UHGV virus genome: UHGV-1366603
Strand: one strand, 5' to 3'
From: a virus
Length of the DNA: 64,000 nucleotides
Shown here: positions 37,613 through 56,474 of the stretch, piece after piece
Layout of the letters: every line of letters begins with the position of its first letter
How positions within the stretch are numbered: position 1 is the first letter of the stretch
The notes under the pieces: model-generated
What the model was told of the DNA's origin: nothing
What the model saw: the letters and a program-made list of their open reading frames with translations, nothing else
Database searches by the model: none
Position numbers and translations under genes: made by a program

Positions 37613-38916
37613 CAGTTAGTACCTGCCTCTGTAACAAGACCATTGACGCTGTCAAGTAATCCTGCTTTCTTGAGAATATATTGATAGTCTGCTTGGTAGA
37701 CATACCAGGTAAGCTTGCGCCGTACGGAATCGATATGTGGATAGCCGTAATAGTTAAATAAAGGCAATAACTGTGGCGCGATAGGAACAAGTTGGCTGCT
37801 GGCCATCGGGATAAAATTCCCCGAAGCGACTGAGCCGGGCTGCGGGAGCATATCTGGGTTAAACATCCCAACAGTTTTATTGAACATCTCCATGTAAAGC
37901 GGATCGTTAAACCGTGCCCCGATTGCTTGCCAGTTGATGTTAATCGTCACGTCGTCATTTAACTGCGGCTTTGAGTTATCGACGTTCGCCATTTGACCCG
38001 CGTTATCGTTCATCGGCCAGGCTACACAAATTGTCCAGAAACGGGTAATGTTCCCTAACGCATCGTAACGTAGACCGTAGATACGTGACTGGTAATCAAT
38101 GCGTCGTTGAATGGAGTTGCGCATCTTCGGACGGAACTTACCCATCTTAATACCCGCCATATACTCCAACCACACACCCATCATTCTCATTAACGGGTCA
38201 CCGTAGGGGTTGTTTAGGGACATTGACACAGAGAACGCGTTGTTGATTTCGTGCGTAGAATCAACCATACCCCACTGTTCGCGCATCAAGCCTTCACTGG
38301 CCATCCAGTTATCGACGGACTGATCGGGTGTTCCGCTTAAACTGATCAGCTGCGTACTGAGTATTGGTATGAACGCTTGTAGATTATCGAATCTTACCTG
38401 CGGCATAAACGGAGTACCTAAGCGGTTTCTTCGTATCCCCGTTTTGCTCTCAACAGGTGAGTCCGAAAACCCTAATTCGAAATCAGGGTCGAGAGCAGCA
38501 AGTATCGAATAATCTAAAGAGTCCTTCGGCTGCAATGCCATGTTTGACATTTTACGCGACTTGGCAATGTTGTCGTAGCACAGGTTGAAATCGGGCCGGG
38601 TAATAAATGTTAGACCACCGTATTCTCGGTTGATTGGCGTGGGGTTAGACGCCATCATATGGTTGAACCCCATGTAGGGGTTGGTCAAACGCTGCGCAGC
38701 AAGACCCAAACCTACAGTAAGGCGGATACGATCGTTCCATGCCGTAAGTTCGGTGTTTGCATCGTAAGGTGTTGCCGGATTGTTGTTGCTGAGTCGGTTA
38801 TTAAAATACCCGGCAACAGAAGGCACCGCGTCCGCGTTATTCGGATTGTGGAGAGAATCGTCGTAATCAGTATTCGGGTCATACCCCGGATCGTTCTTAT
38901 CTGTCTCGTCACTCAT
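37612..38916 (-). CDS. hypothetical protein, 434 aa
   Basis: Minus-strand ORF with GGAG RBS; translationally coupled to the 984-aa gene. Confidence 0.8.
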   Translation of the reverse strand: MSDETDKNDPGYDPNTDYDDSLHNPNNADAVPSVAGYFNNRLSNNNPATPYDANTELTAWNDRIRLTVGLGLAAQRLTNPYMGFNHMMASNPTPINREYGGLTFITRPDFNLCYDNIAKSRKMSNMALQPKDSLDYSILAALDPDFELGFSDSPVESKTGIRRNRLGTPFMPQVRFDNLQAFIPILSTQLISLSGTPDQSVDNWMASEGLMREQWGMVDSTHEINNAFSVSMSLNNPYGDPLMRMMGVWLEYMAGIKMGKFRPKMRNSIQRRIDYQSRIYGLRYDALGNITRFWTICVAWPMNDNAGQMANVDNSKPQLNDDVTININWQAIGARFNDPLYMEMFNKTVGMFNPDMLPQPGSVASGNFIPMASSQLVPIAPQLLPLFNYYGYPHIDSVRRKLTWYVYQADYQYILKKAGLLDSVNGLVTEAGTN

Positions 38917-38942
38917 CTTTAACTCCGGAGTTCATTAGGAAA

Positions 38943-40049
38943 ATGTTAGAAAAAACGTTTGAGACAAGCGTTGTCTCTTTCCTCTCCAGACTTCCCATGC
39001 TGTTTCGTTCGCGTGCGGAGTCGATGGAGGAATTTAACTCCGTGCTCTATAATGAGCACATTACCTTAGTCGAACAAAGCCTGCTGGGTTTAGATTACCT
39101 TCCGGGAATTCTGGAGAAAATCCAAGTTTTGCTGGCAGGAAACCAACTTACTGCAATCTCACTGTTAACGGGTGTGCCTGACGTTGATATTATCGGTACG
39201 CTGGATCAAGTAAGCACTCGTCGTAGCGCACTCGATAACGCAGTGCGGAGCGGCTCACGCTTAGCAGCACTGGCAGTCGGCGAATCTTCCCGCCTAGGAT
39301 TACCATCATACGATAAAATCGGCATTGCTGTGGGTGAATGCGCCCGCCGTGTCGCACAGGAATCCAAAGGTTCCGTTACCGGCGGTAAAGCAGACCCGAT
39401 TAAACAACTGTTCGATCAGGAAGGACTGTCTAACGGGAAAATGTTCTCTGTAACGTTTGAACGTGACGGTAATAAAGTCGAACTTCCAATGCGTTTACGT
39501 TTGGACGTTAAGTCCCTTCCGACCGACCAGATTGAAACTCTGATTGCATTCAGCGACCAGACGAAAACGTTCTGGGAACGTTGGCTGCGTGCACGTGTAG
39601 GTGCACTGAGCTACGTTAAAGACATTGCGTTTTGTAACGACCTGGTAGAAGAATACCGTAAGAACCGTTATCGCGATAAGTCAGGCTACTATCGTAAGAT
39701 GATGGAGAAGAAAAACGGTAACTGGCTGTCTGGCTTGCTGACGCTGGCACCGTCTATTAATAACGCTTCTTCTGTCATGGTGGTTTCTCAAGACACTATC
39801 GACGGTCTGACTGCCCAGCTAGGCGGTGAGTTTGACGATTTCAATATTCGTCAGCGTGTCTTTAAAGACACCTTAACCGTCTATTACGTGGTAGTGGATA
39901 CCGCGTGGAACCGCGTTACTATTTATACTCGCGGTCAGAACGGTTCTCAGGAACTTGATAAATCCGATTTCAGCAAAGCGAAGTCCGGTAGCGCCGATGT
40001 GAACAAAATCATTGAAGCGTATCGCTCTGGCGCACAGCCAGTTCTTTAA
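38943..40049 (+). CDS. hypothetical protein
   Basis: agga RBS; divergent from the 37612..38916 gene across a 26-nt spacer. Confidence 0.8.
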   Translation: MLEKTFETSVVSFLSRLPMLFRSRAESMEEFNSVLYNEHITLVEQSLLGLDYLPGILEKIQVLLAGNQLTAISLLTGVPDVDIIGTLDQVSTRRSALDNAVRSGSRLAALAVGESSRLGLPSYDKIGIAVGECARRVAQESKGSVTGGKADPIKQLFDQEGLSNGKMFSVTFERDGNKVELPMRLRLDVKSLPTDQIETLIAFSDQTKTFWERWLRARVGALSYVKDIAFCNDLVEEYRKNRYRDKSGYYRKMMEKKNGNWLSGLLTLAPSINNASSVMVVSQDTIDGLTAQLGGEFDDFNIRQRVFKDTLTVYYVVVDTAWNRVTIYTRGQNGSQELDKSDFSKAKSGSADVNKIIEAYRSGAQPVL

Positions 40050-40059
40050 GGGGTAAGGC

Positions 40060-40995
40060 ATGGCATTCCCGAATATGCTCGCTATGTTGTTGCCGAGCTT
40101 TGAAGCAACAAACTTGAAAAATCAGCTTTCGTCCAACTGCGATGCAATTGGCGAACAACTTTTACCACGTTTCCAGTCTTTACAAGAACTGGTAGCGTCG
40201 AAAGAAGGCAAACCGTTTAAATCGAAAACGGTACAAGAAATATCCGATGAAGTGGTTAACTACCTGCGGACTTCCGGTCTGGAAGCCAAAGGTCTCCGCA
40301 ATCCATCGATGTTAGAGTACATCGTTTCCTCGATGGAAAACGTGTTGCAGTTGCGTTCTTTCTTAGACCAATGTATTGCGCGTGACATTGGTAAATCGTT
40401 AGTCACGTCTTCAATGACGTTTAATAAATTAACGGTGCTCAGACTGCTTGACCTGATTGATTTCTTCACAGGTTACAGTGCTACGTTACTTAACTACGTT
40501 ACCGCAGAAGAGATTGCCGCTGTCGAAGGCTCGAATATTGAAGTGAAGGGCATCGGTCCGAATGACCTTCAATACCTCAATACTCGTTCGGTCTCTTACT
40601 GCATCGCCATCCGTGTTTTGGCAACGCCGGTAAATAAACTGAAAGCGGATTATGCCGAAATCCCAGAAGCGATTTTCAACGACGAAACTTACGGTGAGTT
40701 GGTTCAGCAGTTCGGTTCGGGCTCGACTGACCCGCTGGGAATGAGCAGTGTACCGTTCCCGATCTCATTGGTACTTCGCGTTCGTTTGAATATTGCTGAA
40801 AGGCAGATGGATAAATACGACGAGTGCGTAGAAGCAGCGAAAGCTGCGGAGTTGCGTATCCTGCTTTACAAAAAGCAAGTAGCGGAAGGTAAGGGAGATG
40901 CGCACATCGAAAAACTCATCGAGCTAAGTGAAAAGCATCTGTTGGAACTCAAGCATAAGCGTGAGCGTCTTGAGAAGAAATACGGTTTAGTGTAA
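40060..40995 (+). CDS. hypothetical protein
   Basis: aaggggtaagg RBS before ATG. Confidence 0.8.
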   Translation: MAFPNMLAMLLPSFEATNLKNQLSSNCDAIGEQLLPRFQSLQELVASKEGKPFKSKTVQEISDEVVNYLRTSGLEAKGLRNPSMLEYIVSSMENVLQLRSFLDQCIARDIGKSLVTSSMTFNKLTVLRLLDLIDFFTGYSATLLNYVTAEEIAAVEGSNIEVKGIGPNDLQYLNTRSVSYCIAIRVLATPVNKLKADYAEIPEAIFNDETYGELVQQFGSGSTDPLGMSSVPFPISLVLRVRLNIAERQMDKYDECVEAAKAAELRILLYKKQVAEGKGDAHIEKLIELSEKHLLELKHKRERLEKKYGLV

Positions 40996-41012
40996 ACCGT
41001 TAGGAGAGCCTC

Positions 41013-41573
41013 ATGTTTGAGCACGATAGTCCCGATTTTAATGTGGCTGTAGAGCGCATTAAAACCTATATGTCGATTTTATCAAAAAACCCAATCGACA
41101 CACACGATGACGAGCTTATTCACAAAACGCTGGAAGCGTGTGCGGTTGTATTACCGTACTTTCGTCTGTTAGCTGCTGACTCTGTGCAGCAGGTATTATA
41201 TGACGAATATCCGCAGGTCGGATTTACCTTTAATACGTTTTATAACGAAAGCGTAGCCTTCCTGCTTGATGGTAAACGACGCACTGTGACGTTAGGACAG
41301 TGGTCCGTATTGCTGTCGTCGTACATGAATGATGTTCGCAATACGAAGAACGTTGAACAGACGGGCTCATTGGGTGCACGTCTTCTTGCTGCTGCGTTTG
41401 GTCGCCGGGGTACTGTACGTAATATGGGTTCCGCTCACCAGTCTGTTGAGTGTAGCAAACGTCTTTTATCTTATGCAGACCATGAACTGCTGGCACGCTG
41501 GATGACACGCCCGAACGGGTTGTCCGACATGATCTCGTCGTTAGCAGTGTTTTTGAAAATCGCACGTCCCTAA
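41013..41573 (+). CDS. hypothetical protein
   Basis: taggagag RBS before ATG. Confidence 0.8.
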   Translation: MFEHDSPDFNVAVERIKTYMSILSKNPIDTHDDELIHKTLEACAVVLPYFRLLAADSVQQVLYDEYPQVGFTFNTFYNESVAFLLDGKRRTVTLGQWSVLLSSYMNDVRNTKNVEQTGSLGARLLAAAFGRRGTVRNMGSAHQSVECSKRLLSYADHELLARWMTRPNGLSDMISSLAVFLKIARP

Positions 41574-41632
41574 GGGGGCCCCTCATTCTAGGGGCGTGTA
41601 ATTGGGTTATATAACCAAAGGAAATAAACGAA

Positions 41633-42904
41633 ATGGCAAATTTCGCAAAAACTCGCGCCGCTCGTGAATCAATGGAAGCGGCCGATGAAGTAATCGACGG
41701 TATCAGCAACGTTGAACCGGCAGAAGAGAACCTGGACGTCCAGCTTGCGGACGTTGCATCTATCGACGGTCAGCTCGAACAGCTGGAAACCGACGGTGAA
41801 ACCCTGGCTGCCGATACCGAGCGTACTGAAGACGCTATCGAACAGGCGGAAGAAGCCGTTGCTAACGGTGAAGAAATGCCGGAAGAAGCGGTTGCCCTGC
41901 ATGAAGTGGCACAGGAATCCATCGCACGTCGTTGGAACCTGGAGCGTACTAAACTGGCTCGCGAATCCTATCGCCGTGGCCGTGGCATGACTGCTGCTGC
42001 GCAGGAAGGCTGGAAAGAAACCCTGAAAGGTCTTTACGAGCGTTTCATTCAGTTCTGTAAAGAAGTAATTGCGAAGATCAAAGACCTGAAACTGAAATAT
42101 TTCAACGTCGGTAAGACCGCACAGAAACGTGCGAAGAAATATCAGGAAATGATCCGCAAGCTGGGCAAACAAGATAAAGACAACATTTCTGGCGGCTTTA
42201 TCACCAAACTGTCCATCGAAGGTAAATTCGATGCTGCTGGCTCTATTGCCATTGCTAAAGAAGTGACCGCAGGTAAAGCTAAAGGTGCTATCAGTGCACT
42301 GGAAAAACAAGCTGGTGAAGCTGTGACTGCTGTTACCAAAGGTGACGATGACGCATTCAAAGCGATGCGTGGTGATCAGCCGGTTGAACTGTTTGGTAAA
42401 GCAGCGTCTAAACTGCATTCTCTGCCGAACTTTGAAAACGGCGATGCGTCTAAACTGCTGGCTCTGCCGGGCAACGCTTACGTTCAGGCTGGTACTAAAG
42501 AACTGGCTGGCGGCCACAAGTTCACCGCAATTGCGTTCATGAGCACCGGTGACGCTTCTGACGATAAAGAAGTGGCTACTCCGTCTGTTTCCGAAATGGC
42601 TGGCGCGGCATCTGCTCTGGAAGCGATCGGTAAAGGCTTCGAAGCTGTACTGAAAGATTTCCGTGCTTACGATTCTGAAATCGTGAAACTGCAACAGGCT
42701 GCTGAAAAAGCGTCCAACGCGCTGAACAACGAAAAAGACGAAAGTAAGTGGGAAGGACTGCGTAATGCACGTCAGGCCGCTGATCAGTCTGTGAAGAACT
42801 ACCAGACCCTGAACCGTGCCGTTAGCTATGTTGCTAACACCGTTATTAGCGGTCTGAACGGTTACCTGGGTGCTGGTATCGGCGCGTACAAAAAGTCTAA
42901 ATAA
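41633..42904 (+). CDS. paralog A of a tandem pair; abundant protein with acidic N-terminal region (possible processed head or internal virion protein)
   Basis: Starts MANFAKTRAARESMEA, ends GLNGYLGAGIGAYKKSK; host-optimal codon usage. Confidence 0.8.
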   Translation: MANFAKTRAARESMEAADEVIDGISNVEPAEENLDVQLADVASIDGQLEQLETDGETLAADTERTEDAIEQAEEAVANGEEMPEEAVALHEVAQESIARRWNLERTKLARESYRRGRGMTAAAQEGWKETLKGLYERFIQFCKEVIAKIKDLKLKYFNVGKTAQKRAKKYQEMIRKLGKQDKDNISGGFITKLSIEGKFDAAGSIAIAKEVTAGKAKGAISALEKQAGEAVTAVTKGDDDAFKAMRGDQPVELFGKAASKLHSLPNFENGDASKLLALPGNAYVQAGTKELAGGHKFTAIAFMSTGDASDDKEVATPSVSEMAGAASALEAIGKGFEAVLKDFRAYDSEIVKLQQAAEKASNALNNEKDESKWEGLRNARQAADQSVKNYQTLNRAVSYVANTVISGLNGYLGAGIGAYKKSK

Positions 42905-42980
42905 TTAGACTTACGCTCGTACAGTTCTTGAAATAAATCAATAGGGGAACGACGTGTTCCCCTTAGAGGAAAAGCTTAAA

Positions 42981-44243
42981 ATGGCAAATTTCGCAAAAAC
43001 TCGCGCCGCTCGTGAATCGATGGAAGCTACTGCTACTGTAGTTCCAGACGGCATCGAACTGCCAGCAGAATCTGTTGAAGGTACTCTGGCCGATATCGAA
43101 CATGATACCAAACCGATCGAAGCCCTGGACGCTGACGCTGAACTGCTGGCCGAAGACGGCGACGAAACTGATGCTCAACTGGATGTCCTGGATGAAGCTC
43201 AGGCCGCTGCCGACGGTGAAGGTGCTGGTGAAGACGGCGAAGAGCCGATGGACGCTGAAGAAGATATGCCGGACGACGCAGCGACTGCGCTGGACGTTGC
43301 TCAGGAATCTATCCGTTCTCGTTGGAACTTCGAACACCGTTCTTCCGTTGCACACGAATCCTACGGTTCTCGTAACCGTCGCCAGGTTGCTCGTGAATCC
43401 CTGTGGGAAGACATTAAAGCATTCCTGAAACGTATCTGGGAATGGCTGAAAGAACAAGGCCGTAAGATCAAAGATCGTTGGCTGAAATTCTCCAACCAGG
43501 GTAAATCCATCCAGGCTCGTTCTAAGAAATACGACGATGCTATTCGTAAACTGGGCAAACAGAAGAAAGATGAAATCTCTGGTGGCTTCATCAAGTCTCT
43601 GTCTATCGACGGTAAATTCGTTGGCGACGATCTGTCGCGCCTGAAGAATATCCTGAACCACGTCTCCACCTACTACAGTGGTAACGTTCAGAGCTTCCTG
43701 AACAACGGTACGGATATGGTTGGTAACGTCGTTAAAGGCGATGGTGCTAAAGTTGAGAAACTGAAAGCAGACTTCGCTGCTCTGGCTAAAGAAGACGTTA
43801 GCAAGTTCAAACTTGGTAACATGGCTCTGAAGATGGAGTACGACGAAGAAGGCGGATTTAGCTCCAGCTATGTGGAAGCTGAAAACCGTGCTGAAACCAA
43901 CGTGAAAACTCCGTCTGTTAGCGAACTGGCTAAGACCAATGCCTTCTTCAACGAAGTGGGTAAACAGATCGAGAAGAACGTTCTGGAATATCGTAAGACT
44001 GAACAGGCTCGCGAGAAATTCAGCCAGCAGATTGAGAAGCTGCTGAAAGAAATCGACAGCGTGAAGATCGACGAAAAACCGCAACTGACCGAATCTGTAC
44101 GTACCGCACGTCGTTACATCAACAGCATTAACCAGGCAGTGTCTCTGGGCGAGAAAGTTATTTCCTCTACTCAGAAACATCTGGCTGGCGGTCTGAACGG
44201 CTATATCTCCGCAGGTATCGCTGCTTACGAAAAATCTAAATAA
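42981..44243 (+). CDS. paralog B of the tandem pair
   Basis: Same N-terminus MANFAKTRAARESMEA and same end GLNGYISAGIAAYEKSK; track start GTG 42954, ATG 42981 with GAGGA RBS preferred. Confidence 0.8.
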   Translation: MANFAKTRAARESMEATATVVPDGIELPAESVEGTLADIEHDTKPIEALDADAELLAEDGDETDAQLDVLDEAQAAADGEGAGEDGEEPMDAEEDMPDDAATALDVAQESIRSRWNFEHRSSVAHESYGSRNRRQVARESLWEDIKAFLKRIWEWLKEQGRKIKDRWLKFSNQGKSIQARSKKYDDAIRKLGKQKKDEISGGFIKSLSIDGKFVGDDLSRLKNILNHVSTYYSGNVQSFLNNGTDMVGNVVKGDGAKVEKLKADFAALAKEDVSKFKLGNMALKMEYDEEGGFSSSYVEAENRAETNVKTPSVSELAKTNAFFNEVGKQIEKNVLEYRKTEQAREKFSQQIEKLLKEIDSVKIDEKPQLTESVRTARRYINSINQAVSLGEKVISSTQKHLAGGLNGYISAGIAAYEKSK

Positions 44244-44260
44244 TCTCTGATTGTTTAGTA

Positions 44261-44307
44261 GGAGAACCACCCTGTAATGGGGTGGTTCTCCCTTTTCTTT
44301 TTTTTTT
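44261..44307 (+). terminator. intrinsic terminator
   Basis: ggagaaccaccc-tgtaat-ggggtggttctcc hairpin followed by a T-rich run. Confidence 0.85.
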
Positions 44308-44322
44308 CGCATTAAAAATAAT

Positions 44323-44339
44323 CTCAGATAGATATTACC
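44323..44339 (+). promoter_or_regulatory. promoter-like motif CTCAGATAGATATTACC
   Basis: Recurring motif about 60 nt upstream of the 44399 start. Confidence 0.5.
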
Positions 44340-44398
44340 TTAGTGAGATTACGCTGTAATCATTTAACGACCTGTTTATTACGTTTAGGAGAATTATC

Positions 44399-45040
44399 AT
44401 GACACGTTACAATTTAGCCGACTTCTGCGATTGTGCCTTTTCTGTTGAAGGTGACAAACTTGTAATGGCTGCGCCAAACGCAAGAGTTTTATCGTTGTAT
44501 CAAGCCGAAGTTATTGCAATTTCGATTTGGTTGGCAAGGGCTATAGACGGCGGCTGTAAGGACCTTGATAAAGAAGTGTTGAAAGTCGGTCGTCGTGAAT
44601 TTGTGTATAAAGCAGAAATCCAGAACCGTTTACCAAAGACCTTTTTAAGCAGCTTGCTTAAAGATGTCAACACCCCAGTTGTCAGCCGAACATTTGACGG
44701 GGTGAAATATTACTCTTTTGAAGATTCGCACGTTGCTATCTGTGAAGGTGAGAATAAGTTTTTTACGACCGTTATCTACTTTCGTATTGCTGAACCTACG
44801 AAAGAAGAACTGGTTTGCAATACTGCGAACGATGTGGCCGTGATGCGTATGGACGATATCACCAGTGAACTATCTGGATTAAATGACATACCGCGTATTG
44901 TGGAGCGAGTCTTGGAAGGAGACGATTACTTTAAGTTGCTTCCGCTGGTAGCAAGCGAAGAAACAGAACAGGAAAGCGCTTTCATTCAGGTTAACCTTAC
45001 CGCTGCACAGGCGGTGGATCGTTTCTTCGAAGCTTTATAA
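44399..45040 (+). CDS. hypothetical protein
   Basis: taggagaa RBS; terminator downstream. Confidence 0.8.
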   Translation: MTRYNLADFCDCAFSVEGDKLVMAAPNARVLSLYQAEVIAISIWLARAIDGGCKDLDKEVLKVGRREFVYKAEIQNRLPKTFLSSLLKDVNTPVVSRTFDGVKYYSFEDSHVAICEGENKFFTTVIYFRIAEPTKEELVCNTANDVAVMRMDDITSELSGLNDIPRIVERVLEGDDYFKLLPLVASEETEQESAFIQVNLTAAQAVDRFFEAL

Positions 45041-45044
45041 TCAG

Positions 45045-45074
45045 AATGCCCTCCGTAGAGGGCATTATTTTTTC
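45045..45074 (+). terminator. intrinsic terminator
   Basis: aatgccctc-cgta-gagggcatt hairpin followed by ttattttttc. Confidence 0.85.
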
Positions 45075-45093
45075 GACCTTTAGGAGAATAGAA

Positions 45094-45645
45094 ATGAACA
45101 AATTTAATATCTTAGACGCTAAAATCGTATCCGAGTCTTCTATTCAGCAAGAAATCTTTCGTGTTCAGTTCGGTGAGAAAGTTCTGAATATTCCGCGCCC
45201 AGTTATGATTGGCTTAGCGATATTCGTTAACAACAGCCATTGCAACGGTTCGGCGTTGTCAGTTCTTGAGTACGGTAACTATCAGTTTTATATTCCAGAA
45301 CATCTCGAGTATAACCGTTTTATTGAACTTAAACCGTTCTATAAGTTCATGCTTGATGCAGGGTATTCGATTCTAACCAAAACGTATATTCGAGACTACT
45401 CGAAGTTAGAATCTTTCTATCGTGCTCGTGGTCTCCGTGTCCCACAACCGTTCGACGGATACCAGACCCGTGTTGTGTTAACTGCACCGCTAACGAAAGA
45501 ATTGGCTTCCTACAAACTGGATATCGAACAAAAACTGCTGCGTGACGACTTACTGAAAATCTATAACCAGTTGTCCGTGGTGCCTTCTTCAACTGTTTCG
45601 AACATTGAACCAGAGTACGGAATAAGACAATACATGGAAGGTTAA
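45094..45645 (+). CDS. hypothetical protein
   Basis: Track ORF starts at 45046 inside the terminator; ATG 45094 with TAGGAGA RBS preferred. Confidence 0.75.
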   Translation: MNKFNILDAKIVSESSIQQEIFRVQFGEKVLNIPRPVMIGLAIFVNNSHCNGSALSVLEYGNYQFYIPEHLEYNRFIELKPFYKFMLDAGYSILTKTYIRDYSKLESFYRARGLRVPQPFDGYQTRVVLTAPLTKELASYKLDIEQKLLRDDLLKIYNQLSVVPSSTVSNIEPEYGIRQYMEG

Positions 45646-45646
45646 G

Positions 45647-45952
45647 ATGAATCCGAGAGCCGACCGAATAGACGTGATACGTTTTGAAGAGTGTGAAACC
45701 GAGTACCAGGTTAAACGTATCGAATTACGTTTAGTTATCCCTAAGCTAAACGAACCTGAGTGGAACGGTGAGCTGATGGTGCCGCTCGCCGAACCAATTA
45801 AAACGGGAGCAGGTGAGATTAATTATCTTCATTTAGAAGCGGCTGGACGAAAAGTAACCGTTTGGCATCTTGCTGACGGTTACAAAACCAGTCAGCTTAC
45901 ACGTAAAGCTTTTATTCGGAAATTAAGAGAGTCGATGGGAGTTGTGAAATGA
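45647..45952 (+). CDS. hypothetical protein
   Basis: Short ORF coupled to its upstream and downstream neighbours. Confidence 0.7.
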   Translation: MNPRADRIDVIRFEECETEYQVKRIELRLVIPKLNEPEWNGELMVPLAEPIKTGAGEINYLHLEAAGRKVTVWHLADGYKTSQLTRKAFIRKLRESMGVVK

Positions 45953-46485
45953 CAGTTACTGTATCTTTGATTGCAGCAGCGGGACTTAATAATGAAATAG
46001 GGAAAGACAATAAACTCCCTTGGCATATTCCCGATGACTTGAAGAACTTCAAAGCACTCACGTCAGGTAAGGTCATCGTGATGGGACGTAAGACGTGGGA
46101 GTCGTTGGGGTATAAACCCTTACCAAACCGTCACCACGTTATCTTAACACGAAAACATGGCGGTGTTCCTGACATCGACGGTGTGTTGAACCTTAAAGGT
46201 GATATGGGGTCGGTTATCGAGTTTCTCAAGAAAGAAGTTGTGGAGAAAGATTACCCGAAAGAAATCTTTATTATTGGTGGCGCAGAGATTTACCAACAGG
46301 CGATGCCTTATGCGGATAAGATTTACTTGTCTCGTGTTGAGGTTAAGGTAGAGGGTGCAGATGCGTTCTTCCCTGAAATCGATCATGACGTGTTTAAATT
46401 GACTTATAACTTAACACACTGCTCGAAACCAGAAAGTGAAATTCCGCGTTGGCATTATCAGATTTGGAAAAGAGATGGAAACTGA
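45949..46485 (+). CDS. frd: dihydrofolate reductase
   Basis: SLIAAAGLNNEIGKDNKLPWHIPDDLKNFKALTSGKVIVMGRKTWESLGYKPLPNRHHVILTR...IIGGAEIYQQ...VEGADAFFP aligns along its length with E. coli FolA motifs. Confidence 0.9.
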   Translation: MTVTVSLIAAAGLNNEIGKDNKLPWHIPDDLKNFKALTSGKVIVMGRKTWESLGYKPLPNRHHVILTRKHGGVPDIDGVLNLKGDMGSVIEFLKKEVVEKDYPKEIFIIGGAEIYQQAMPYADKIYLSRVEVKVEGADAFFPEIDHDVFKLTYNLTHCSKPESEIPRWHYQIWKRDGN

Positions 46486-46771
46486 GTTTGTAACCTTAGA
46501 AAAACTCTTTTTAGGCAGCGTCGCGAAAAGGAAGATAGCCAGTTTCACTTGGAGCCGTACTCCCGTAAAATACGCGTTTCTACGTCGTTTACACTACGAG
46601 AAAAGCATCAAGCTGGTCTTGGTCGTGTTGTTCGAAAACAAACGCGGATTGTTGATTAATAATCATCGTTTTGCGGCGGAAATCTGGGCGACCACATCTG
46701 GCGGCGAGGAAGCGTCTGTTGGCTTTGCTAACGATGAGGTTATCTTTGAGGGTATACCTTATCTGTTATAG
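46475..46771 (+). CDS. hypothetical protein
   Basis: ATG (METEF...) overlaps the DHFR stop; track ORF starts upstream at 46436. Confidence 0.6.
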   Translation: METEFVTLEKLFLGSVAKRKIASFTWSRTPVKYAFLRRLHYEKSIKLVLVVLFENKRGLLINNHRFAAEIWATTSGGEEASVGFANDEVIFEGIPYLL

Positions 46772-46784
46772 CACAGATAAACAT

Positions 46785-46820
46785 AAAAGGGGACTTCGGT
46801 TCCCTTTTATTTTTTTTTCA
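46785..46820 (+). terminator. intrinsic terminator
   Basis: 10-bp stem aaaaggggac/gttccctttt with UUCG loop, followed by a T9 run. Confidence 0.85.
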
Positions 46821-46860
46821 TTTCGCGCCTGTGATATGACTATAACGAAGGAACAAGCCA

Positions 46861-48369
46861 ATGCAACAGTATTTTGAAATTCCGTCGTTAGACGCGACCA
46901 TTCGCAAACCAATAATCGATGGCGTTATACAACGTGTACTTAATGAATCAGGTATTGATAAAGCAGCGGTTGTTTTCCTCGATGAATTCAATAGCGCACA
47001 TCAGCCCGATTCCACGTTAGGCGACGGTACAGAAGTTGAGTACAGCTCGCCTGAAAAGGTGTATGTTGAAGTAGAAGAAGAACGCGATGAGTGGGCCAGA
47101 ATCAATCGTCAGGTTGGTCAGCAAGCCGAACCGTACTTCTTTGAAAACTCCGTCGATCAGGTGCGTGCCTGGCCCGTTAGAACGATGTATAACGTAACGG
47201 TAACGTTACGACGTACCAGTGCCTCGCGCGATGAGTTATTGCGCTGGACAAACCGTTTAGACTCGTTAGTGGACATGGGTCGGTATTCGACAATGACCGA
47301 GTCAGAAGCGTTTTATTATATTCCGAAGCCAGCACTGAAACTGTTGAATGCCTGCTATGTTGCCGCAGGAACTCGTGTACCGACGTTTGACGATTTTAAA
47401 GCCTATCTCAAAGCGTACTTTACCCCCGACGTGTTCCGCGCTGCTAACGTTGCCGGTGGTCAGGAATCTATTGCGGTACGCTATGCACCTACTCGCTTAG
47501 AGACTGTATACGACGTTCAGACACCTGCCTGGGATAAAGACGAGAACCACTGGGAAGCCACATTCGTTGTGCGTTTCTCTTATCAGCGTCCTGAAGAGAT
47601 TGTGGTTTCGTATCCGTATATCATCAACCAGACGCCGCTCCCTGATGAATACTGGCCAGAGATAGACCCACCGTGGGTGTCTAACGAAGAATTGGTGTAT
47701 CGTCATCCGCAACAAAAGAATCTCGATTCAACGTGGTGGATTAACGAAACCCGTCAGTATATTCGTTTACCGTATCTACTGTCACCGACAGAACAGTTCC
47801 ACCGTACACATTCCCCGTTAAAAGATAAACTCTTACACGTTTTCGGAACAGACGTTGTATTCGATGAAGACAACATGAGCTCACCGAAAGTGTTATCTGT
47901 GGAGGATTTACCGTACGAGTGGAATCCTGATTTGTTGCCGTATATCGAACACTGTCGTGCAATAGACCCTACCGGACAGACAGGTGTCTTCCGTGTGGAG
48001 TTGTTCGAAGAAGGCCAAATCATCGAACCGCGTTTCTATCATTGGGAAGACAATACCTTCTTTTTGAAAGGTCGTGATTTAAAAGTTAACAAGAGTTACT
48101 ACTTAACTGAATCGGTGATGTTCGACTGGCGAGGGATGAACCTGTGGCCACTCCAGCTTTATCCTAAAGCCGCGAAAGTGTTGATAGAATGGTTATTCCC
48201 GAAATGGGATGTACCGGACTGGTGGTGGGATAAACCCGTATTACCGCCGAGTGTTATCGACGACATTAATAAACTGATTCCTAACGTAGAAGCCCGCGTC
48301 TTGCTGACGGTGCTGAACTCGACCGTGATTACCATGCGAGGGACAGAGAATGCTCAAAGCGAAGCGTGA
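46861..48369 (+). CDS. hypothetical protein, 502 aa
   Basis: aaggaacaagcc RBS before ATG. Confidence 0.8.
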   Translation: MQQYFEIPSLDATIRKPIIDGVIQRVLNESGIDKAAVVFLDEFNSAHQPDSTLGDGTEVEYSSPEKVYVEVEEERDEWARINRQVGQQAEPYFFENSVDQVRAWPVRTMYNVTVTLRRTSASRDELLRWTNRLDSLVDMGRYSTMTESEAFYYIPKPALKLLNACYVAAGTRVPTFDDFKAYLKAYFTPDVFRAANVAGGQESIAVRYAPTRLETVYDVQTPAWDKDENHWEATFVVRFSYQRPEEIVVSYPYIINQTPLPDEYWPEIDPPWVSNEELVYRHPQQKNLDSTWWINETRQYIRLPYLLSPTEQFHRTHSPLKDKLLHVFGTDVVFDEDNMSSPKVLSVEDLPYEWNPDLLPYIEHCRAIDPTGQTGVFRVELFEEGQIIEPRFYHWEDNTFFLKGRDLKVNKSYYLTESVMFDWRGMNLWPLQLYPKAAKVLIEWLFPKWDVPDWWWDKPVLPPSVIDDINKLIPNVEARVLLTVLNSTVITMRGTENAQSEA

Positions 48370-49720
48370 TAAGCCGTCAACATTTGAACCCGTAGACCGG
48401 CCTATCCCCGAGTTAAATAAACCCCAGGACGGCGTAAAAGAAACCACCAATATCGTTACGCAACCCACCCGTACCACCGTTACTGATTTAGACCGTATTC
48501 CAAAGCAATACCTAATGAAGTATCTGGAAGGGTCAGCGTGGACGGTGGACTTCTTTAACTTCCTGAAAGGAAGAAACGACGCCAAGAAGTTTTTCGATTC
48601 GAAAGTGCTTACACCTGACCAACAGGTGGAGAAAATCATCGGGTTGGAACTGCGTGTAACGACACCGCTCGATCGTAGCCAAGACACCACGAACAAAACG
48701 TTCAGCATGTCAGGCGCTGCAACAATTGCAAACTCGATTATCCCTAACGAGGGTTGCTTTTTCATCGCCCCTATTGGTGATGGTCGTTTTGCGTTGTTTA
48801 ACGTTACCAACGTTGTGCGTATGTCGAATAACAAAGTCGCGACGTACAACATCGAATACACGTTACTTTTCGAAGTTGACCCAGAAACCGCAGAAACGAT
48901 TCGTCGTTGCACCGTACGTGAATACTACTACGTTGCAGAGCGTGCCTGGACAGGCGGTGATACACTTCTCACACCGAAAGAGTACCGCGCGTTCCTGGAA
49001 GTCGTTGACGCGATTGAAGATATTGAACAGACGTATGTGAAACGTTTCTACGACGGTGAAACGGCCACGTTGTTGTTCCCACACGATCGGCACAGTGACG
49101 GTTTGCGTAGCCGTGCTTACTACGACGTGTTCTTAGCGCTGTTTGTGCGCGCGCTGGGGTTACGTACCGTAGGTAAGGATATTCAGATTTATCCACATCC
49201 GCCGATGAACGTGGAGGATATTGAAACGGTGTGGACAGCGCTGCTGCAACAGTCGCCAACGTTCTTAGCAGATTACAAACGTGACAGTTCGGTGTGGCAA
49301 ACGAAAACTTTCCGTACGATGCAACATCGTAACTCGGTAACGTGGTCGCTGATTTCCGACACCCGATTCTTTACGGAAGAGTTAAAGCCAGGTTATGGGA
49401 TGGCGCAACGTTTCCCTGGCCAGTGGCCAGAATGGAAACCGTTTGAACCGGTTGAAGTTGAAAACTATCGTGGGAACGAAGGAGAGTCTATACCGGCCTT
49501 CTTACCGTTATCCTTTAAACCGTATCTGTTGAGCGAGACGTTCTACGACGGTTCTTACAGTTCGTTGTTGGAATACGGCTTGTACTTGTACCTGCATAAA
49601 CGTCCGCTACCGTCGGTAATTGCGTTAAAACTGTTTGAGGAAGTTTATAAGCTCCCGAAAGACGCACAGTTCTATTACATTCCGATGGTGTATCTGCTTT
49701 TAAGATATTCGAGGGATTAA
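48350..49720 (+). CDS. hypothetical protein, 456 aa
   Basis: Overlaps the upstream gene; gagggacagag RBS. Confidence 0.8.
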   Translation: MLKAKRDKPSTFEPVDRPIPELNKPQDGVKETTNIVTQPTRTTVTDLDRIPKQYLMKYLEGSAWTVDFFNFLKGRNDAKKFFDSKVLTPDQQVEKIIGLELRVTTPLDRSQDTTNKTFSMSGAATIANSIIPNEGCFFIAPIGDGRFALFNVTNVVRMSNNKVATYNIEYTLLFEVDPETAETIRRCTVREYYYVAERAWTGGDTLLTPKEYRAFLEVVDAIEDIEQTYVKRFYDGETATLLFPHDRHSDGLRSRAYYDVFLALFVRALGLRTVGKDIQIYPHPPMNVEDIETVWTALLQQSPTFLADYKRDSSVWQTKTFRTMQHRNSVTWSLISDTRFFTEELKPGYGMAQRFPGQWPEWKPFEPVEVENYRGNEGESIPAFLPLSFKPYLLSETFYDGSYSSLLEYGLYLYLHKRPLPSVIALKLFEEVYKLPKDAQFYYIPMVYLLLRYSRD

Positions 49721-49721
49721 T

Positions 49722-50261
49722 GTGTCAGTGAAACGTAGTGCAGCGTTTATGCTGTTCCATAAGTGGGTAGCATGGCGTGTCCCTGAATGGACAACCATCA
49801 CCCAGTATATGTCGCAAGAACACGGATTGTTCTTGCCGGATGACGAAAAGAAAGCACGAGCGATTTTGTTGAACAAGAAAACGGTGTATATGCGGCCATT
49901 TGAAGTGGCGGTGTATGCTGAGACCGGTGCTGCGTTAGATGTTCATGATCCGAACGACGGTATTATCGTTTACGGGTATATCATGGAACACCTGGCAGAT
50001 TGGTTACATTACATGCAAGAACCTCACCTGACGACGCGTAAAGTGCCGATAGAAGGACTACGTCAGTTCAACGCCTTAGCATGTAAACTCTTTCCTGTTG
50101 CTAACCGTTACGGTTACTTTAAGAAACCGGAAGTGACGATGGCGACGTCGGTACAAGCGTTATTTGGAGAGGTGCGTTTAGAAACGCAGCAACACCGTTT
50201 TAACGATACGATAATGCGACGTATAGAAGCGATTTATCGTAAAAGGGGAGGTATACTGTAA
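49722..50261 (+). CDS. hypothetical protein
   Basis: GTG start with gaggga RBS. Confidence 0.7.
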   Translation: MSVKRSAAFMLFHKWVAWRVPEWTTITQYMSQEHGLFLPDDEKKARAILLNKKTVYMRPFEVAVYAETGAALDVHDPNDGIIVYGYIMEHLADWLHYMQEPHLTTRKVPIEGLRQFNALACKLFPVANRYGYFKKPEVTMATSVQALFGEVRLETQQHRFNDTIMRRIEAIYRKRGGIL

Positions 50262-51580
50262 TGTCGTTTGGTCGGTTACAGAACATAGCAAACGTGCACA
50301 TTGCACAAGCGGCGGGATTACCGGCCATCGAATACGTACCTATCATTACGGTACGTGGTACAGTTATCAGCGTATTTAAAACGTTGTCGATAATCCATGC
50401 CAGTAACTTCGCACAGGACTTAACGACCATCACCCATCTTACCGTGATGATACCGTTGAGCCAACAGCGTGTGTTAACGTCCTCCGCAGACGGGGATTTG
50501 TCCGTGAAGATCTTAATGCGGACGATGAACAAGAAAACCGTTGCGAAACTCGACTATCGGGGTATCGTCGTGAACAACCACGATCCCGATATGGAATCGC
50601 CCACGATGTTCTTAGGTGAGTCTGACCAGAAAGCGTTAGCGGTCGTCACCCTGGAACTGATGGACGAGTCAATGTGGTTCTTACGTTGCCGTCAGGTCGG
50701 TGGGATTTATCACGAGACAGATGGCCTTAGCGTTGTTCGTGCGCTGCTGGCAGATACGTTACCTACCGGTGATGCGCCAGAAGGTCAGTTGGTGGGCGTG
50801 GAATACGAGGAAGAGGAGCAACAACCGTATCGGGATATTTTGATTCCTGACTCGGAAAGTTTCCTGTCTGTGTTCGATTACCTTCAGAATCGTTACGGGG
50901 TTTATAGCCAAGGATTGGGGGTGTTCCTTTACAAACACCGTTGGTATATTTTCCAACCTTGGGACTCTAAGAAGTTTTCATCAGCGAAGAATAAGCTGGT
51001 GATTATAAACCTACCGAAAGAGAAAGCAGCGTATCTGAATAAGACCTGCCACATTGACGGTGATGTGATTTACCTGATTTGTGGGGGTGATGTCCACACC
51101 TTCGAAGATAAAGACTCCTTAGCGCTAAACCAAGGTACCGGTTATCGTGTGGGGTCTATCCGTGCGTTGGATGGTCGTGCGTCCTCGTTCTCGTCAGGCG
51201 ACGTTTCTGCTACAACGTCTGATTCGTTCGTCTCAGCGGCTGACCCGACGCAATATCCAGGCGGCGTAGTTAACGCACCAATTGACCCGAACCAACACTT
51301 CTCGGACACAGATAAACCGCAACGGTCTAAGTTAGCGGCGGCGAAAGGGACGTTAACCGCAACAACCTGGAACGCTTCAACGTATGGCTTACTCCGTCCG
51401 GGGATGGCAGTAAAATACATTTATGCGAATAACTATGGTGTATACACGCGTTACGGAACATTAGTTGCAGAAGTTTTCCAAGGTGCAATTGATGGCGGTT
51501 CAGCGGCTTCACCACGGTTTAATACCATTAGTCAGTTGACGTTGTGGCTGACTAATGAAAATTTTACATCCACAACGTAA
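50261..51580 (+). CDS. hypothetical protein, 439 aa
   Basis: TAATG overlap with the upstream gene; aaaggggagg RBS. Confidence 0.8.
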   Translation: MSFGRLQNIANVHIAQAAGLPAIEYVPIITVRGTVISVFKTLSIIHASNFAQDLTTITHLTVMIPLSQQRVLTSSADGDLSVKILMRTMNKKTVAKLDYRGIVVNNHDPDMESPTMFLGESDQKALAVVTLELMDESMWFLRCRQVGGIYHETDGLSVVRALLADTLPTGDAPEGQLVGVEYEEEEQQPYRDILIPDSESFLSVFDYLQNRYGVYSQGLGVFLYKHRWYIFQPWDSKKFSSAKNKLVIINLPKEKAAYLNKTCHIDGDVIYLICGGDVHTFEDKDSLALNQGTGYRVGSIRALDGRASSFSSGDVSATTSDSFVSAADPTQYPGGVVNAPIDPNQHFSDTDKPQRSKLAAAKGTLTATTWNASTYGLLRPGMAVKYIYANNYGVYTRYGTLVAEVFQGAIDGGSAASPRFNTISQLTLWLTNENFTSTT

Positions 51581-51612
51581 GTTATGTCGACAGCAACCTA
51601 AAGGATTTGTTA

Positions 51613-52413
51613 ATGAGCAATTTACTTACTTTCCGCATGTCTGGTCAAACGTTAATGCAGATTGACGAGTACGAAAAAGAACATTTCGCTAAACCGTCCA
51701 AACTGTTAGAACGTTGCTTAAAGGTTATTCCAGGCGGCGAGCATTGTCAGCTAGATTTCGTCATGGCGTCTTCTGCTGACAAAACGGTCTCTGTTATCTA
51801 CACGGTTGACGGAGTACAGGGCCATCGCTTATTACCGATTGAAGAAAAAGGTTCTTTGGGTAATTTGTTGTTCTTGCACGCAATCACGACAGCGGTAGTG
51901 ACGGGTGCACTGGAAGCACAGTACGGTTTCGCGTATTGCTATTTCTACGCACAGAAACTGGCGAATGCGGTAGTTCCAGGGGAGCCGGAAACGTATCCGA
52001 AGTATATCGAACGTTTGCTTCCGACACACTTTGCTGAGTCTGACGACTATGAGTTCAATGCTTTCCGTTTCACGATGATTGGCGAAGCACGCGATCCTGA
52101 AAACACCATCGCGTTACGTGCTGTTGTTCGTTACGCGGTAATTTCGTCTGACAGCGGAATGGCAAGCAACTTCAACGAAGTGTTCCCGGTTATGCAACTA
52201 GGTCCGTATATCACGTTTAACGCGTACGTACCGTTTACTTGTCAGTTAATCGGCCCGCAGGATAACGATTCTATCCTCCCGATTACTGAAGAGAAAGGTC
52301 TGCATATTCGTGACGCCGTAGAAGTCATCAACGATAAACGTTTTACGATCTCATCGAAAAGCGGCATTGCTGATGAAGAACTTGCGGTCGTGAACAAAAT
52401 GCAAGTGATGTAA
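51613..52413 (+). CDS. hypothetical protein
   Basis: Track start TTG 51607; ATG 51613 with aaagga RBS preferred. Confidence 0.8.
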   Translation: MSNLLTFRMSGQTLMQIDEYEKEHFAKPSKLLERCLKVIPGGEHCQLDFVMASSADKTVSVIYTVDGVQGHRLLPIEEKGSLGNLLFLHAITTAVVTGALEAQYGFAYCYFYAQKLANAVVPGEPETYPKYIERLLPTHFAESDDYEFNAFRFTMIGEARDPENTIALRAVVRYAVISSDSGMASNFNEVFPVMQLGPYITFNAYVPFTCQLIGPQDNDSILPITEEKGLHIRDAVEVINDKRFTISSKSGIADEELAVVNKMQVM

Positions 52414-52419
52414 AATTAT

Positions 52420-52457
52420 CCCGTTACCTTTGTGGGTAACGGGATGTCCTTTTATTT
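52420..52457 (+). terminator. intrinsic terminator
   Basis: cccgttacc-tttgtg-ggtaacggg hairpin with a T-run (ccttttattt) shortly downstream. Confidence 0.7.
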
Positions 52458-52576
52458 ACTCGTAAACGCGTCTTAGACGTTGTTTTACACCTTAAGACGA
52501 TTAATGGTGTTTAAAAAATAAAAGGTCGTCAGAATGCGATACAGCGCGTTTTAGAGGGTGTTTTAATTAAAATATT

Positions 52577-52592
52577 TTCAGATATATATTAC
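52577..52592 (+). promoter_or_regulatory. promoter-like motif TTCAGATATATATTAC
   Basis: Contains TATATTAC, which I recall as the phiKZ early-promoter core; about 58 nt upstream of the small gene at 52650. Confidence 0.5.
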
Positions 52593-52649
52593 TTAGGTGA
52601 GAGAATTACGTAATACTCATTTATCGAATACCTAATTAGGAGCTATATC

Positions 52650-52793
52650 ATGATTTCTGTAAAACACAAAAAAGCTATCTTCGCTGTTGTTATCGCTGTT
52701 GTTCTGGGTTGCCTGTACCTGGATATCGACAAAGGCTACGACACTTGCATCGACAACGGTAACTCCGTTGCGCAGTGCACTGGTCGTGGTTAA
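52650..52793 (+). CDS. small hydrophobic protein, 47 aa (not in ORF track, below its length cutoff)
   Basis: TAGGAG RBS; MISVKHKKAIFAVVIAVVLGCLYLDIDKGYDTCIDNGNSVAQCTGRG; host-optimal codons; own promoter-like motif and terminator. Confidence 0.6.
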   Translation: MISVKHKKAIFAVVIAVVLGCLYLDIDKGYDTCIDNGNSVAQCTGRG

Positions 52794-52800
52794 TGTATAA

Positions 52801-52828
52801 GGCACCTTCGGGTGCCCTTAATTTTTTA
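52801..52828 (+). terminator. intrinsic terminator
   Basis: ggcacc-ttcg-ggtgcc hairpin followed by a T6 run. Confidence 0.85.
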
Positions 52829-52847
52829 TCTATTGGAGTATTTTTAA

Positions 52848-53663
52848 ATGAAAACTATCAAAGACTATTTTCCGACCGGCATCAGTAGCGACCATTTCGT
52901 ACCAGCGGATTCGATGGAAATCATCAGTAAGTCCAGTAGCGGTGAGTTTGTTATTTACCTAACTAATGTAGGAGGTAGACCGAGTTTCATTCTCCTCGAG
53001 CCTAAAGAAGTAAGTGTCTGTACGGTTGCTGTAAATGTTTCTTGCAGCCTTAGCTGGTTGAAGTCCAGATTGCTACGCTTGCTCGTGGTTAATACTGACC
53101 CAGTAGTACGCTTAGAGCGATTAAAAGCAATGAATGAAGTTATCCTGGGTTTTCTGCTACATCCTATTTACGGTAACCCTAAAGTCGCAGAAGCAATACA
53201 AAACGTACAGTTGGTGGAGTGGAGTGATATTGACTACGAGCGTGCCTCCGAATTTGTATTACAGGCAGACGACAACACCGGTGTGTTCTCACGAACGTTA
53301 GATAATGTAACGGTAACTGCACGTGTGTTGTTTGGTTTACAGCGCGTAGAGTTTGAATTGAAACACGTCTACGTGAGCAATAAACCGGAGATGGTGGAAA
53401 CGTTGATTCGTGCGTTCGCATACCCGTTAGATGGTGAATGGGAACAGCAGATTAATGATGCGTTAGGAGCCATGCATTTCCTGGCTGAAACGTTAAGGAA
53501 GGATGAGAAATTGAAAGGTCGTGTTTATCCAGAACACGATTTTGTTTGTGAAGAATGTGGAGCACAGTATCAAATCCGTGTTCCTTTAACCGGCCTAACA
53601 TTCCCGCAAGCCAACGTGCAATGTAAGGAATGTGGCCATGTTCAATACGTAGCGATTAAATAA
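52848..53663 (+). CDS. hypothetical protein with C-terminal zinc-ribbon-like CxxC...CxxC
   Basis: ttggag RBS; CEECGAQYQ...CKECGHVQY near the C-terminus. Confidence 0.8.
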   Translation: MKTIKDYFPTGISSDHFVPADSMEIISKSSSGEFVIYLTNVGGRPSFILLEPKEVSVCTVAVNVSCSLSWLKSRLLRLLVVNTDPVVRLERLKAMNEVILGFLLHPIYGNPKVAEAIQNVQLVEWSDIDYERASEFVLQADDNTGVFSRTLDNVTVTARVLFGLQRVEFELKHVYVSNKPEMVETLIRAFAYPLDGEWEQQINDALGAMHFLAETLRKDEKLKGRVYPEHDFVCEECGAQYQIRVPLTGLTFPQANVQCKECGHVQYVAIK

Positions 53664-53669
53664 AAGCAA

Positions 53670-53712
53670 CCCCTAATCCCGAAAAGGATTAGGGGTACAC
53701 TTTATTTATTTT
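53670..53712 (+). terminator. intrinsic terminator
   Basis: 10-bp stem cccctaatcc/ggattagggg followed by a T-rich run. Confidence 0.85.
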
Positions 53713-53737
53713 CGCTCTTAAAAAAGGAAATTGTGTC

Positions 53738-53893
53738 ATGAAGAATGTTAATGCAATGCTTAACCAGTCATTTGTTAACCAACAGCGTTTTCAGGAACGC
53801 TTAGCACAACTTAAAACACAACACAGACCGCCACAACAAAGAGTGGTTAAGAGCAAGTTTGGCGAAATGGTTTTCGAAAGAAAATCTTTCTAA
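53738..53893 (+). CDS. hypothetical small protein, 51 aa
   Basis: aaaaaggaaa RBS; ORF MKNVNAMLNQSF...; its own terminator follows. Confidence 0.5.
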   Translation: MKNVNAMLNQSFVNQQRFQERLAQLKTQHRPPQQRVVKSKFGEMVFERKSF

Positions 53894-53902
53894 TAACCGT
53901 TA

Positions 53903-53929
53903 AGGGGGTGTGACAGCACCCCCTTTTTT
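53903..53929 (+). terminator. intrinsic terminator
   Basis: gggggtg-tgacag-caccccc hairpin followed by a T6 run. Confidence 0.8.
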
Positions 53930-54052
53930 ACGCTTTAACTTTTCCAAAGAGAAGTTAAAGCAAGGTACGCTGCCACAACAGCGTACCTTTTACAACACCA
54001 TTACGTTTCCGTAATGGATTTCTTTAATCACCCTACAAAGAGGGCTTATACC

Positions 54053-54226
54053 ATGAACAATGGTTACTACTTTACTGACAAAATGCTTGCAGAACAGTAT
54101 GCAGCAAAAACCAATTTACAGCAACGTATCTACGAGTATAGTCAACTCGGCGTGAATAAACGATTAAAACCATCCACCAACCGTTTCACACAGATAATCA
54201 CTGAAAAAAGGAGCGAACGCTACTAA
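54053..54226 (+). CDS. hypothetical small protein, 57 aa
   Basis: Track ORF 54014..54226; ATG 54053 with gaggg RBS preferred. Confidence 0.5.
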   Translation: MNNGYYFTDKMLAEQYAAKTNLQQRIYEYSQLGVNKRLKPSTNRFTQIITEKRSERY

Positions 54227-54234
54227 CTAATACA

Positions 54235-54254
54235 GGGGGTGCACTACCACCCCC
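54235..54254 (+). terminator. putative terminator hairpin (weak T-tract)
   Basis: gggggtg-cactac-caccccc hairpin; a T10 run lies about 45 nt further downstream. Confidence 0.35.
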
Positions 54255-54361
54255 TACTTGGTTCAGTAGTTGACTTTCGTTCATAATTATTAGATGTCTT
54301 GTTTTTTTTTTGCTTTTCGGGACGCATAAGGGGTCGTAGGGGGAGCCGAAGCTCCCCAGAC

Positions 54362-56462: not shown

Positions 56463-56474
56463 GGTATTAAACAA

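Follow-up and report, generated by a model that had tools for sequence, protein, structure and literature searches.

A divergent FolA-type dihydrofolate reductase in an accessory cassette of an SPN3US-like giant phage, with a probable role in dTMP supply alongside a distant phage ThyA

What does a phage-encoded dihydrofolate reductase (DHFR) do when no thymidylate synthase (TS) gene lies next to it? In bacteriophage T4, a phage FolA-type DHFR works with a phage ThyA-type TS for dTMP supply, and the two genes, frd and td, are adjacent. The locus considered here, positions 45094-46771 of a 64,000-nucleotide stretch of viral DNA (hereafter the window), holds a DHFR gene packed among small genes of other kinds. 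The original prediction saw in the missing TS neighbor a noteworthy feature, leaving the phage either dependent on the host enzyme or in possession of a TS encoded elsewhere. The analysis favors, with a probability of about 85%, a FolA-type DHFR of an SPN3US-like phage, situated in an accessory cassette and serving dTMP supply together with a distant phage ThyA.

The DHFR and its phage

The window belongs to a phiKZ-like jumbo phage, as indicated by a divergent family-B DNA polymerase, the phiKZ major capsid protein and phiKZ internal head proteins. Together with collinearity to Salmonella phage SPN3US (~11.5 to 78 kb), this gene set upholds the phage origin of the DNA. Divergent DnaB and RNA polymerase (RNAP) fragments are also encoded, and a 455-aa ORF occupies 31.2-32.5 kb. 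The source is an uncultured SPN3US-like (phiKZ-like, nucleus-forming type) giant phage of enterobacteria. Close DNA-level relatives are missing among cultured phages: when the region was compared by megablast with 50,697 phage records, only short patches aligned, and for a 25-kb query the best coverage was 40%, at 77% identity. Positions 35949..56485 are 100% identical (20,537 bp) to the human-gut contig ERZ918879 k127_150560 (223,427 bp) from ENA, and many Salmonella, Shigella and E. coli assemblies hold near-identical proteins on contigs of ~220-230 kb.

The gene at 45949..46485 (+ strand) was correctly taken for a DHFR. Its 178-aa product matches Pfam PF00186 (DHFR_1) with an E-value of 4e-47 and 160.3 bits against a cut-off of 25, residues 5-159 aligning to profile positions 2-144 of 159. 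It also matches PHROG 316 (E=7e-54), and its top PDB matches are all DHFRs (best E=1e-30). The polypeptide carries a DHFR domain only and is not a bifunctional DHFR-TS. Alignment to E. coli FolA shows that D27, L28, F31, R44, T46, R57, G95, G96 and Y100 are kept, as D30, L31, F34, R47, T49, R61, G110-G111 and Y115 of the phage protein; T113 of the E. coli protein is replaced by Ser (S128), and M20L, W30N, I50L and R52K are further departures. The alignments to the PDB DHFRs show these motifs as well. The product is thus predicted to be catalytically competent and presumably has enzymatic activity. It is described as divergent because its score against the NCBIfam chromosomal-FolA equivalog (101 bits) falls below the cut-off of 168; identity to the DHFRs of the SPN3US and Machinavirus groups is 47-52%.

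Could the gene instead be a 'moron' encoding a trimethoprim-insensitive Dfr, whose main effect is trimethoprim resistance of infected cells or carriers and not phage dTMP synthesis? Ranked by E-value, its NCBIfam matches are led by models of trimethoprim-resistant Dfr enzymes, among them DfrA12/A21 and DfrE. Asn takes the place of W30 of E. coli FolA, a position mutated in trimethoprim-resistant forms of that enzyme, and the human gut and Salmonella/Shigella assemblies as source make exposure to trimethoprim plausible. The Dfr model scores, however, are ~60-108 bits against cut-offs of 250-400 (best, DfrA12/A21, 107.8 versus 330), and no cut-off is reached for any of the named families DfrA/B/D/E/F/G/I/K/L among the NCBIfam AMR models; it was on these cut-offs that the resistance reading was rejected. 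The closest relatives of the protein, moreover, belong to lytic phages of the SPN3US and Machinavirus groups and occupy the same syntenic position, which argues for vertical inheritance, and the gene co-occurs with a phage ThyA, the producer of dihydrofolate (DHF). A primary role in resistance is therefore improbable, though it fares better than the other alternatives weighed below.

A thymidylate synthase outside the window

No TS gene lies beside the DHFR, as originally predicted, and the statement can be extended from the cassette to the entire window. Among 56 ORFs scanned across the 64 kb, none matches Thymidylat_synt or Thy1, and tblastn queries with the ThyA of this phage or with the ThyA, Tmk and MazG of SPN3US produce no match there. 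An adjacent frd-td operon of the T4 kind is hence absent, with no TS in either the cassette or the 64-kb window. The proposed search for thyA or thyX elsewhere in the genome was rewarded on the 223,427-bp contig, which bears the identical DHFR gene at 35322-35858 and a ThyA gene at 162091-163125, on the same strand, ~126 kb away and in a different transcription unit. This ThyA (P0118, 344 aa) was found by a search with SPN3US ThyA, to which it is 64% identical.

The window is linked to this ThyA through the 20.5 kb of identity and through agreeing contig counts, rather than by a single continuous read: DHFR and ThyA each occur on five contigs, with the same size distribution. The start of the window would fall 10.6 kb before the first base of k127_150560, so the window must stem from another assembly or a permutation of the same genome. 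On sequence criteria, the phage carries its own TS and its DHFR has a normal biochemical partner. Of the two options first envisaged, a TS encoded elsewhere is thus the one that held, and dependence on the host enzyme is improbable.

A further alternative retains the reliance on host ThyA by assigning the phage ThyA-like protein to dUMP or dCMP hydroxymethylation for a modified base, with DHFR uncoupled from thymidylate synthesis. Some support comes from two insertions, of ~40 and ~47 aa, that set the protein apart from E. coli ThyA. The protein nevertheless passes three thymidylate-synthase equivalogs of NCBIfam (NF002499, 412.1 bits with a cut-off of 405; NF002497, 397.7 with 327; TIGR03284, 341.5 with 108), aligns to E. 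coli TS with E=2.7e-108, and retains the catalytic Cys (PCH), the dUMP-specifying Asn (PFNIAS) and the HLYSNH motif. Hydroxymethylases do not oxidize folate; since a DHFR is co-inherited all the same, true TS chemistry is favored. A hydroxymethylase role of this ThyA appears unlikely, and the alternative built upon it has a smaller chance of being correct than the resistance reading.

Under the preferred reading, in which DHFR and the phage ThyA act together, DHFR most likely regenerates tetrahydrofolate from the dihydrofolate that ThyA releases, and a phage thymidylate kinase may complete dTTP supply, by analogy with SPN3US. In the SPN3US genome, DHFR is found at 58,162, Tmk at 93,524 and ThyA (PF00303, E=1e-111) at 197,633, placing DHFR and ThyA ~139 kb apart. 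DHFR, TS and Tmk are reported in all SPN3US-like phages (PMC6614189), and DHFR and TS show phyletic co-occurrence in jumbo phages (PMC7824862). In SPN3US-like jumbo phages, separation of the DHFR and ThyA genes is documented as the norm, so that the missing neighbor loses its standing as a peculiarity and the biology is ordinary. What is new is a divergent DHFR (~50% identical to known DHFRs) of an uncultured and apparently widespread lineage of enterobacterial jumbo phages.

The cassette and its putative early expression

The DHFR cassette fills the interval between paired phiKZ_IP internal-head-protein genes (41633..44243) and a 502-aa gene (46861) that is 60-75% identical to its orthologues. 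Eight genomes were compared, namely the window and seven relatives (SPN3US, SPAsTU, ChrisDB, Caitlin, pEa_SNUABM_6, pSal-SNUABM-04 and Logan contig L014), all with DHFR in the same position. Between lineages, the genes at the two ends of the cassette are unrelated, except in the close relative L014. In the window, the first variable slot is occupied by an ORF of 213 aa (44399..45040, + strand), which has no Pfam, PHROG or NCBIfam match, does not resemble what SPN3US or the Erwinia phages encode in this slot, and shows only 49% nucleotide identity to L014. The last slot holds a 98-aa gene (46475..46771, + strand; an ORF also annotated in ENA), likewise with no match in Pfam, PHROG or NCBIfam and no similarity to the 99-aa and 148-aa occupants in SPN3US and ChrisDB, respectively.

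Between these slots lie two conserved genes and the DHFR. gpA (45094..45645, + strand, 183 aa) matches PHROG 12369 with E=3e-48 and is 24-37% identical to the same-position proteins of SPN3US, SPAsTU, Caitlin and ChrisDB; it is present in five of the seven relatives, including L014, and absent from pSal-SNUABM-04 and pEa_SNUABM_6. gpB (45647..45952, + strand, 101 aa), directly upstream of DHFR, belongs, as a divergent and shortened version, to a family of proteins of 116-126 aa (PHROG 9893, E=8e-9) that is found in all seven. Word-indexed homologue searches returned only 2 proteins for gpA and 13 for a concatenated gpA and gpB profile, which left shallow alignments for structure prediction. 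For gpA, AF2 gave an unusable model (pLDDT 41); the model of gpB reaches a pLDDT of 85.5 and a pTM of 0.75 and shows a beta-beta-alpha-beta4-alpha fold, for which no informative structural match was found. A conserved partner of DHFR, coupled to it across the clade, is the role suggested for gpB, making it a reasonable candidate for interaction studies. Neither gpA, gpB nor the 98-aa protein matches a Pfam or NCBIfam family, in keeping with the original remark that the neighbors display no ThyA or ThyX motifs. The sizes first given for the flanking proteins were 101 aa, which is correct, and 99 aa for the downstream product, which is in fact 98 aa long.

All four ORFs of 45094-46771 lie on the + strand and are tightly spaced. 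gpA is preceded by the ribosome-binding site AGGAG, 7 nt upstream of its start, and ends with TAA at 45643-45645; gpB begins 1 nt past this stop. Both overlaps initially described for DHFR are present: its ATG (45949-45951) overlaps the TGA of gpB (45950-45952) as ATGA, and the gene starting at 46475 overlaps its 3′ end by 11 nt, the DHFR stop being at 46483-46485. An in-frame GTG at 46436 offers an alternative start for the 98-aa gene. The gap of 1 nt and the overlaps of 4 nt (ATGA) and 11 nt imply translational coupling of the last four genes. On the identical ENA contig, an independent gene caller picked the same four genes. Relative to L014 (~80% identity), differences at the first, second and third codon positions number 41/24/102 in gpA, 34/27/65 in gpB, 18/12/75 in DHFR and 12/4/33 in the 98-aa gene; because substitutions are biased to the third position in all four, these ORFs are real genes.

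The junction of gpB and DHFR recurs in the relatives. The annotations of ChrisDB, Caitlin, SPAsTU, pSal-SNUABM-04 and L014 show a 4-nt overlap, and a re-reading of SPN3US gives GTGA if DHFR starts at the GTG at L001:6004; the annotated ATG, 24 nt further downstream, thus appears to be placed too far downstream by that distance. In pEa_SNUABM_6, an extra 173-aa gene separates gpB from DHFR.

Three hairpins emerged from a terminator scan and RNA folding, all on the + strand. The first, at 44261..44291, is an intrinsic-terminator hairpin closing the internal-head-protein genes, with a 14-bp stem followed by a T-run (-25.2 kcal/mol, z=-5.8). The last, at 46783..46810, is an intrinsic terminator that closes the cassette, with a 12-bp stem and nine T (-15.2 kcal/mol, z=-5.1). 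An internal hairpin at 45045..45066, between the 213-aa gene and gpA, combines a 9-bp stem with ATTTTTT (-14.6 kcal/mol, z=-5.0); its candidate roles are those of a partial terminator or attenuator, or of a processing or stability element. About 27 nt separate it from the next ATG, a stretch with no promoter motif.

The promoter-like signal of the cassette is the conserved AT-rich motif AGATAGATATTACC at 44326..44339 (+ strand), between the first terminator and the ATG of the 213-aa gene, from which it is 60 nt away. It is a perfect copy, with 0 mismatches, of the intergenic motif AGATAGATATTAYC, which recurs in the window with 18 matches at up to 3 mismatches, versus 7.8±2.8 in shuffles. Of the + strand matches with up to 2 mismatches, six of seven are intergenic and upstream of + genes, in a window that is 5.5% non-coding. 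In each of the seven related loci, exactly one copy (up to 2 mismatches) lies in the gap that immediately precedes the first cassette gene. A sigma-70 promoter scan was uninformative (5 matches versus 5.4 expected).

No copy precedes gpA. Because the sole promoter-like motif stands before the 213-aa gene (44399) and not before 45094, the four-gene block originally described, while indeed coupled, probably forms the distal portion of a unit of five genes. If the internal hairpin terminated most transcripts, the four genes would need a separate, unrecognized promoter.

Two further copies of AGATAGATATTAYC, at 3399 and 17081, precede RNAP-subunit genes, which would be those of the non-virion enzyme by elimination against the published list of SPN3US virion RNAP subunits. 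Early promoters of jumbo phages, which the virion RNAP recognizes, carry an AT-rich, highly conserved motif of ~10 nt that is centered around -10 relative to mapped start sites of early transcription (PMC7598289). The AT-richness, intergenic site, orientation and RNAP-gene position of AGATAGATATTAYC agree with this description (PMC7598289). AGATAGATATTAYC is probably a candidate early promoter of the virion RNAP, and such a clade-wide promoter-like motif could aid the annotation of early operons in SPN3US-like phages.

These elements suggest an early transcription unit at ~44340-46810, set among late structural genes, that would run from the motif at 44326-44339 through the 213-aa gene, the internal hairpin, gpA, gpB, DHFR and the 98-aa gene to the terminator at 46783-46810. 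Early timing and co-transcription of the five genes are the expected behavior, and the hairpin at 45045-45066 may act as a partial terminator. The locus would then be an example of a metabolic, probably early, cassette placed within late structural modules.

A baseplate DHFR of T4 was once proposed to be a structural component of the virion. A similar function here would explain why the gene has internal-head-protein genes on its upstream side and head-tail joining and virion-structural genes on its downstream side. It is nevertheless the least probable of the alternatives: a conserved promoter-like motif and terminators belong to the cassette itself, this motif also precedes RNAP-subunit genes and so does not look like a late one, and gene content around DHFR varies whereas the structural genes are conserved. 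In SPN3US virions, mass spectrometry detected a single protein of known non-virion function, Tmk (PMC10052503), so DHFR was not among the proteins detected. The virion-component reading was rejected on this transcription-unit anatomy and on the SPN3US proteomics text (PMC10052503, PMC5694885).

Comparison with known systems

The closest well-described parallel is SPN3US, whose DHFR (ACQ60_gp208, YP_009153352) lies in a cassette, gp211-gp206, at the same position and with the same gpA-gpB-DHFR order as in the window. The same promoter-like motif is found upstream, ThyA is distant and on the same strand, and Tmk is encoded tens of kb downstream of DHFR. At the sequence level, identity is only ~49% (aa) for DHFR and 37% for gpA, and gpB is barely recognizable. 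SPN3US also has unrelated genes at the two ends of its cassette and one extra gene of 196 aa.

The best DHFR matches (51-52% identity) come from the Erwinia phages ChrisDB (gp71-74) and Caitlin (gp65-68) of the Machinavirus group. Both share with the window the gpA-gpB-DHFR order, the 4-nt overlap and an identical core AGATAGATATTACC upstream. Unlike the window, they have no variable first gene, and the motif stands directly before gpA; the downstream gene and the host genus also differ.

T4 provides the contrasting architecture. Its frd and td genes are adjacent, whereas ~126 kb separates DHFR from ThyA in the window phage, where the two belong to different transcription units. At the protein level, E. 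coli FolA, a chromosomal type 3 DHFR, belongs to the same fold family as the phage enzyme at ~38% identity. The two share the catalytic Asp and the NADPH- and folate-binding residues, and the phage DHFR exceeds FolA by ~19 residues and has an insertion ahead of the GG motif.

Lineage and thymidylate synthase of the phage

The window phage is a member of a ~220-230-kb SPN3US-like lineage that is met repeatedly in metagenomes of the human gut, as well as in genome assemblies from Salmonella, Shigella and E. coli. Sources of this lineage include the window itself, the ENA contig ERZ918879 k127_150560 (loci L008 and L009) and the Logan contig SRR31227937_655 (L014). The cluster of gpA, a small protein of the dihydrofolate reductase (DHFR) cassette, comprises 203 members on 142 contigs. 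A close cultured representative was not found in the phage collection, where coverage reached at most 40%, at 77% identity. The phage's own ThyA, P0118 (L009:10001-11035; 344 aa), bears two insertions (approximately residues 103-142 and 190-236) when compared with E. coli ThyA, which has 264 aa, and lengths of 337-353 aa are found throughout the SPN3US/Erwinia jumbo-phage ThyA clade.

Gene starts and gene turnover in the DHFR cassette

The RefSeq start of SPN3US DHFR (ATG, record position 58162) is probably placed 24 nt too far downstream. An alternative GTG at 58138 is served by an AGGAG ribosome-binding site, forms a GTGA overlap with the stop of the upstream gene, and lengthens the homology as far as the N-terminus of other DHFRs (L001:6004-6030, equivalent to record 58138-58164). 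The cassette also varies in gene content. Erwinia phage pEa_SNUABM_6 carries an additional 173-aa gene between gpB and DHFR (L012:2483-3004) with a 4-nt overlap at either side, and in SPAsTU a 184-aa gene lies 3′ of DHFR; the cassette thus acts as a hotspot at which small genes are gained and lost. Its G+C content (42.5% at window 44001..46000) is lower than the ~46-49% of the flanking structural genes, consistent with an accessory, faster-evolving region.

A candidate early promoter

The window and related loci share a conserved intergenic motif, AGATAGATATTAYC, whose fuller form is roughly AAAAnATyTCAGATAGATATTAYCTnrGTGA. Copies lie on the plus strand of the window at 3399, 3479, 11887, 17081, 44326, 52580 and 58832, and in relatives at L001:4160 (SPN3US), L002:5016, L010:1119, L011:2001, L012:1264, L013:1781 and L014:3232. 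Common to Seoulvirus, Machinavirus and the lineage of the window phage, the motif is a candidate for, and probably represents, the consensus of early promoters (the virion-RNAP class) in the SPN3US-like clade.

A group I intron in an RNA polymerase subunit gene

The RNAP beta′-like subunit gene at window 5468..7425 is interrupted immediately 5′ of its catalytic DFDGD motif by a predicted group I intron (6836..7185), which matches Rfam RF00028 at 6825..7137 (61 bits, E=5e-13). T6835 is the predicted last base of exon 1 and G7185 that of the intron; joining the exons in frame would yield a 535-aa subunit, versus 531 aa in SPN3US, whose gene is continuous at this site. By elimination, the split subunit probably belongs to the non-virion RNAP. 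The intron of PhiPA3 gp210, which resides in an RNAP beta gene, provides a precedent (PMC11620839), but the one described here is ORF-less and lacks a homing endonuclease.
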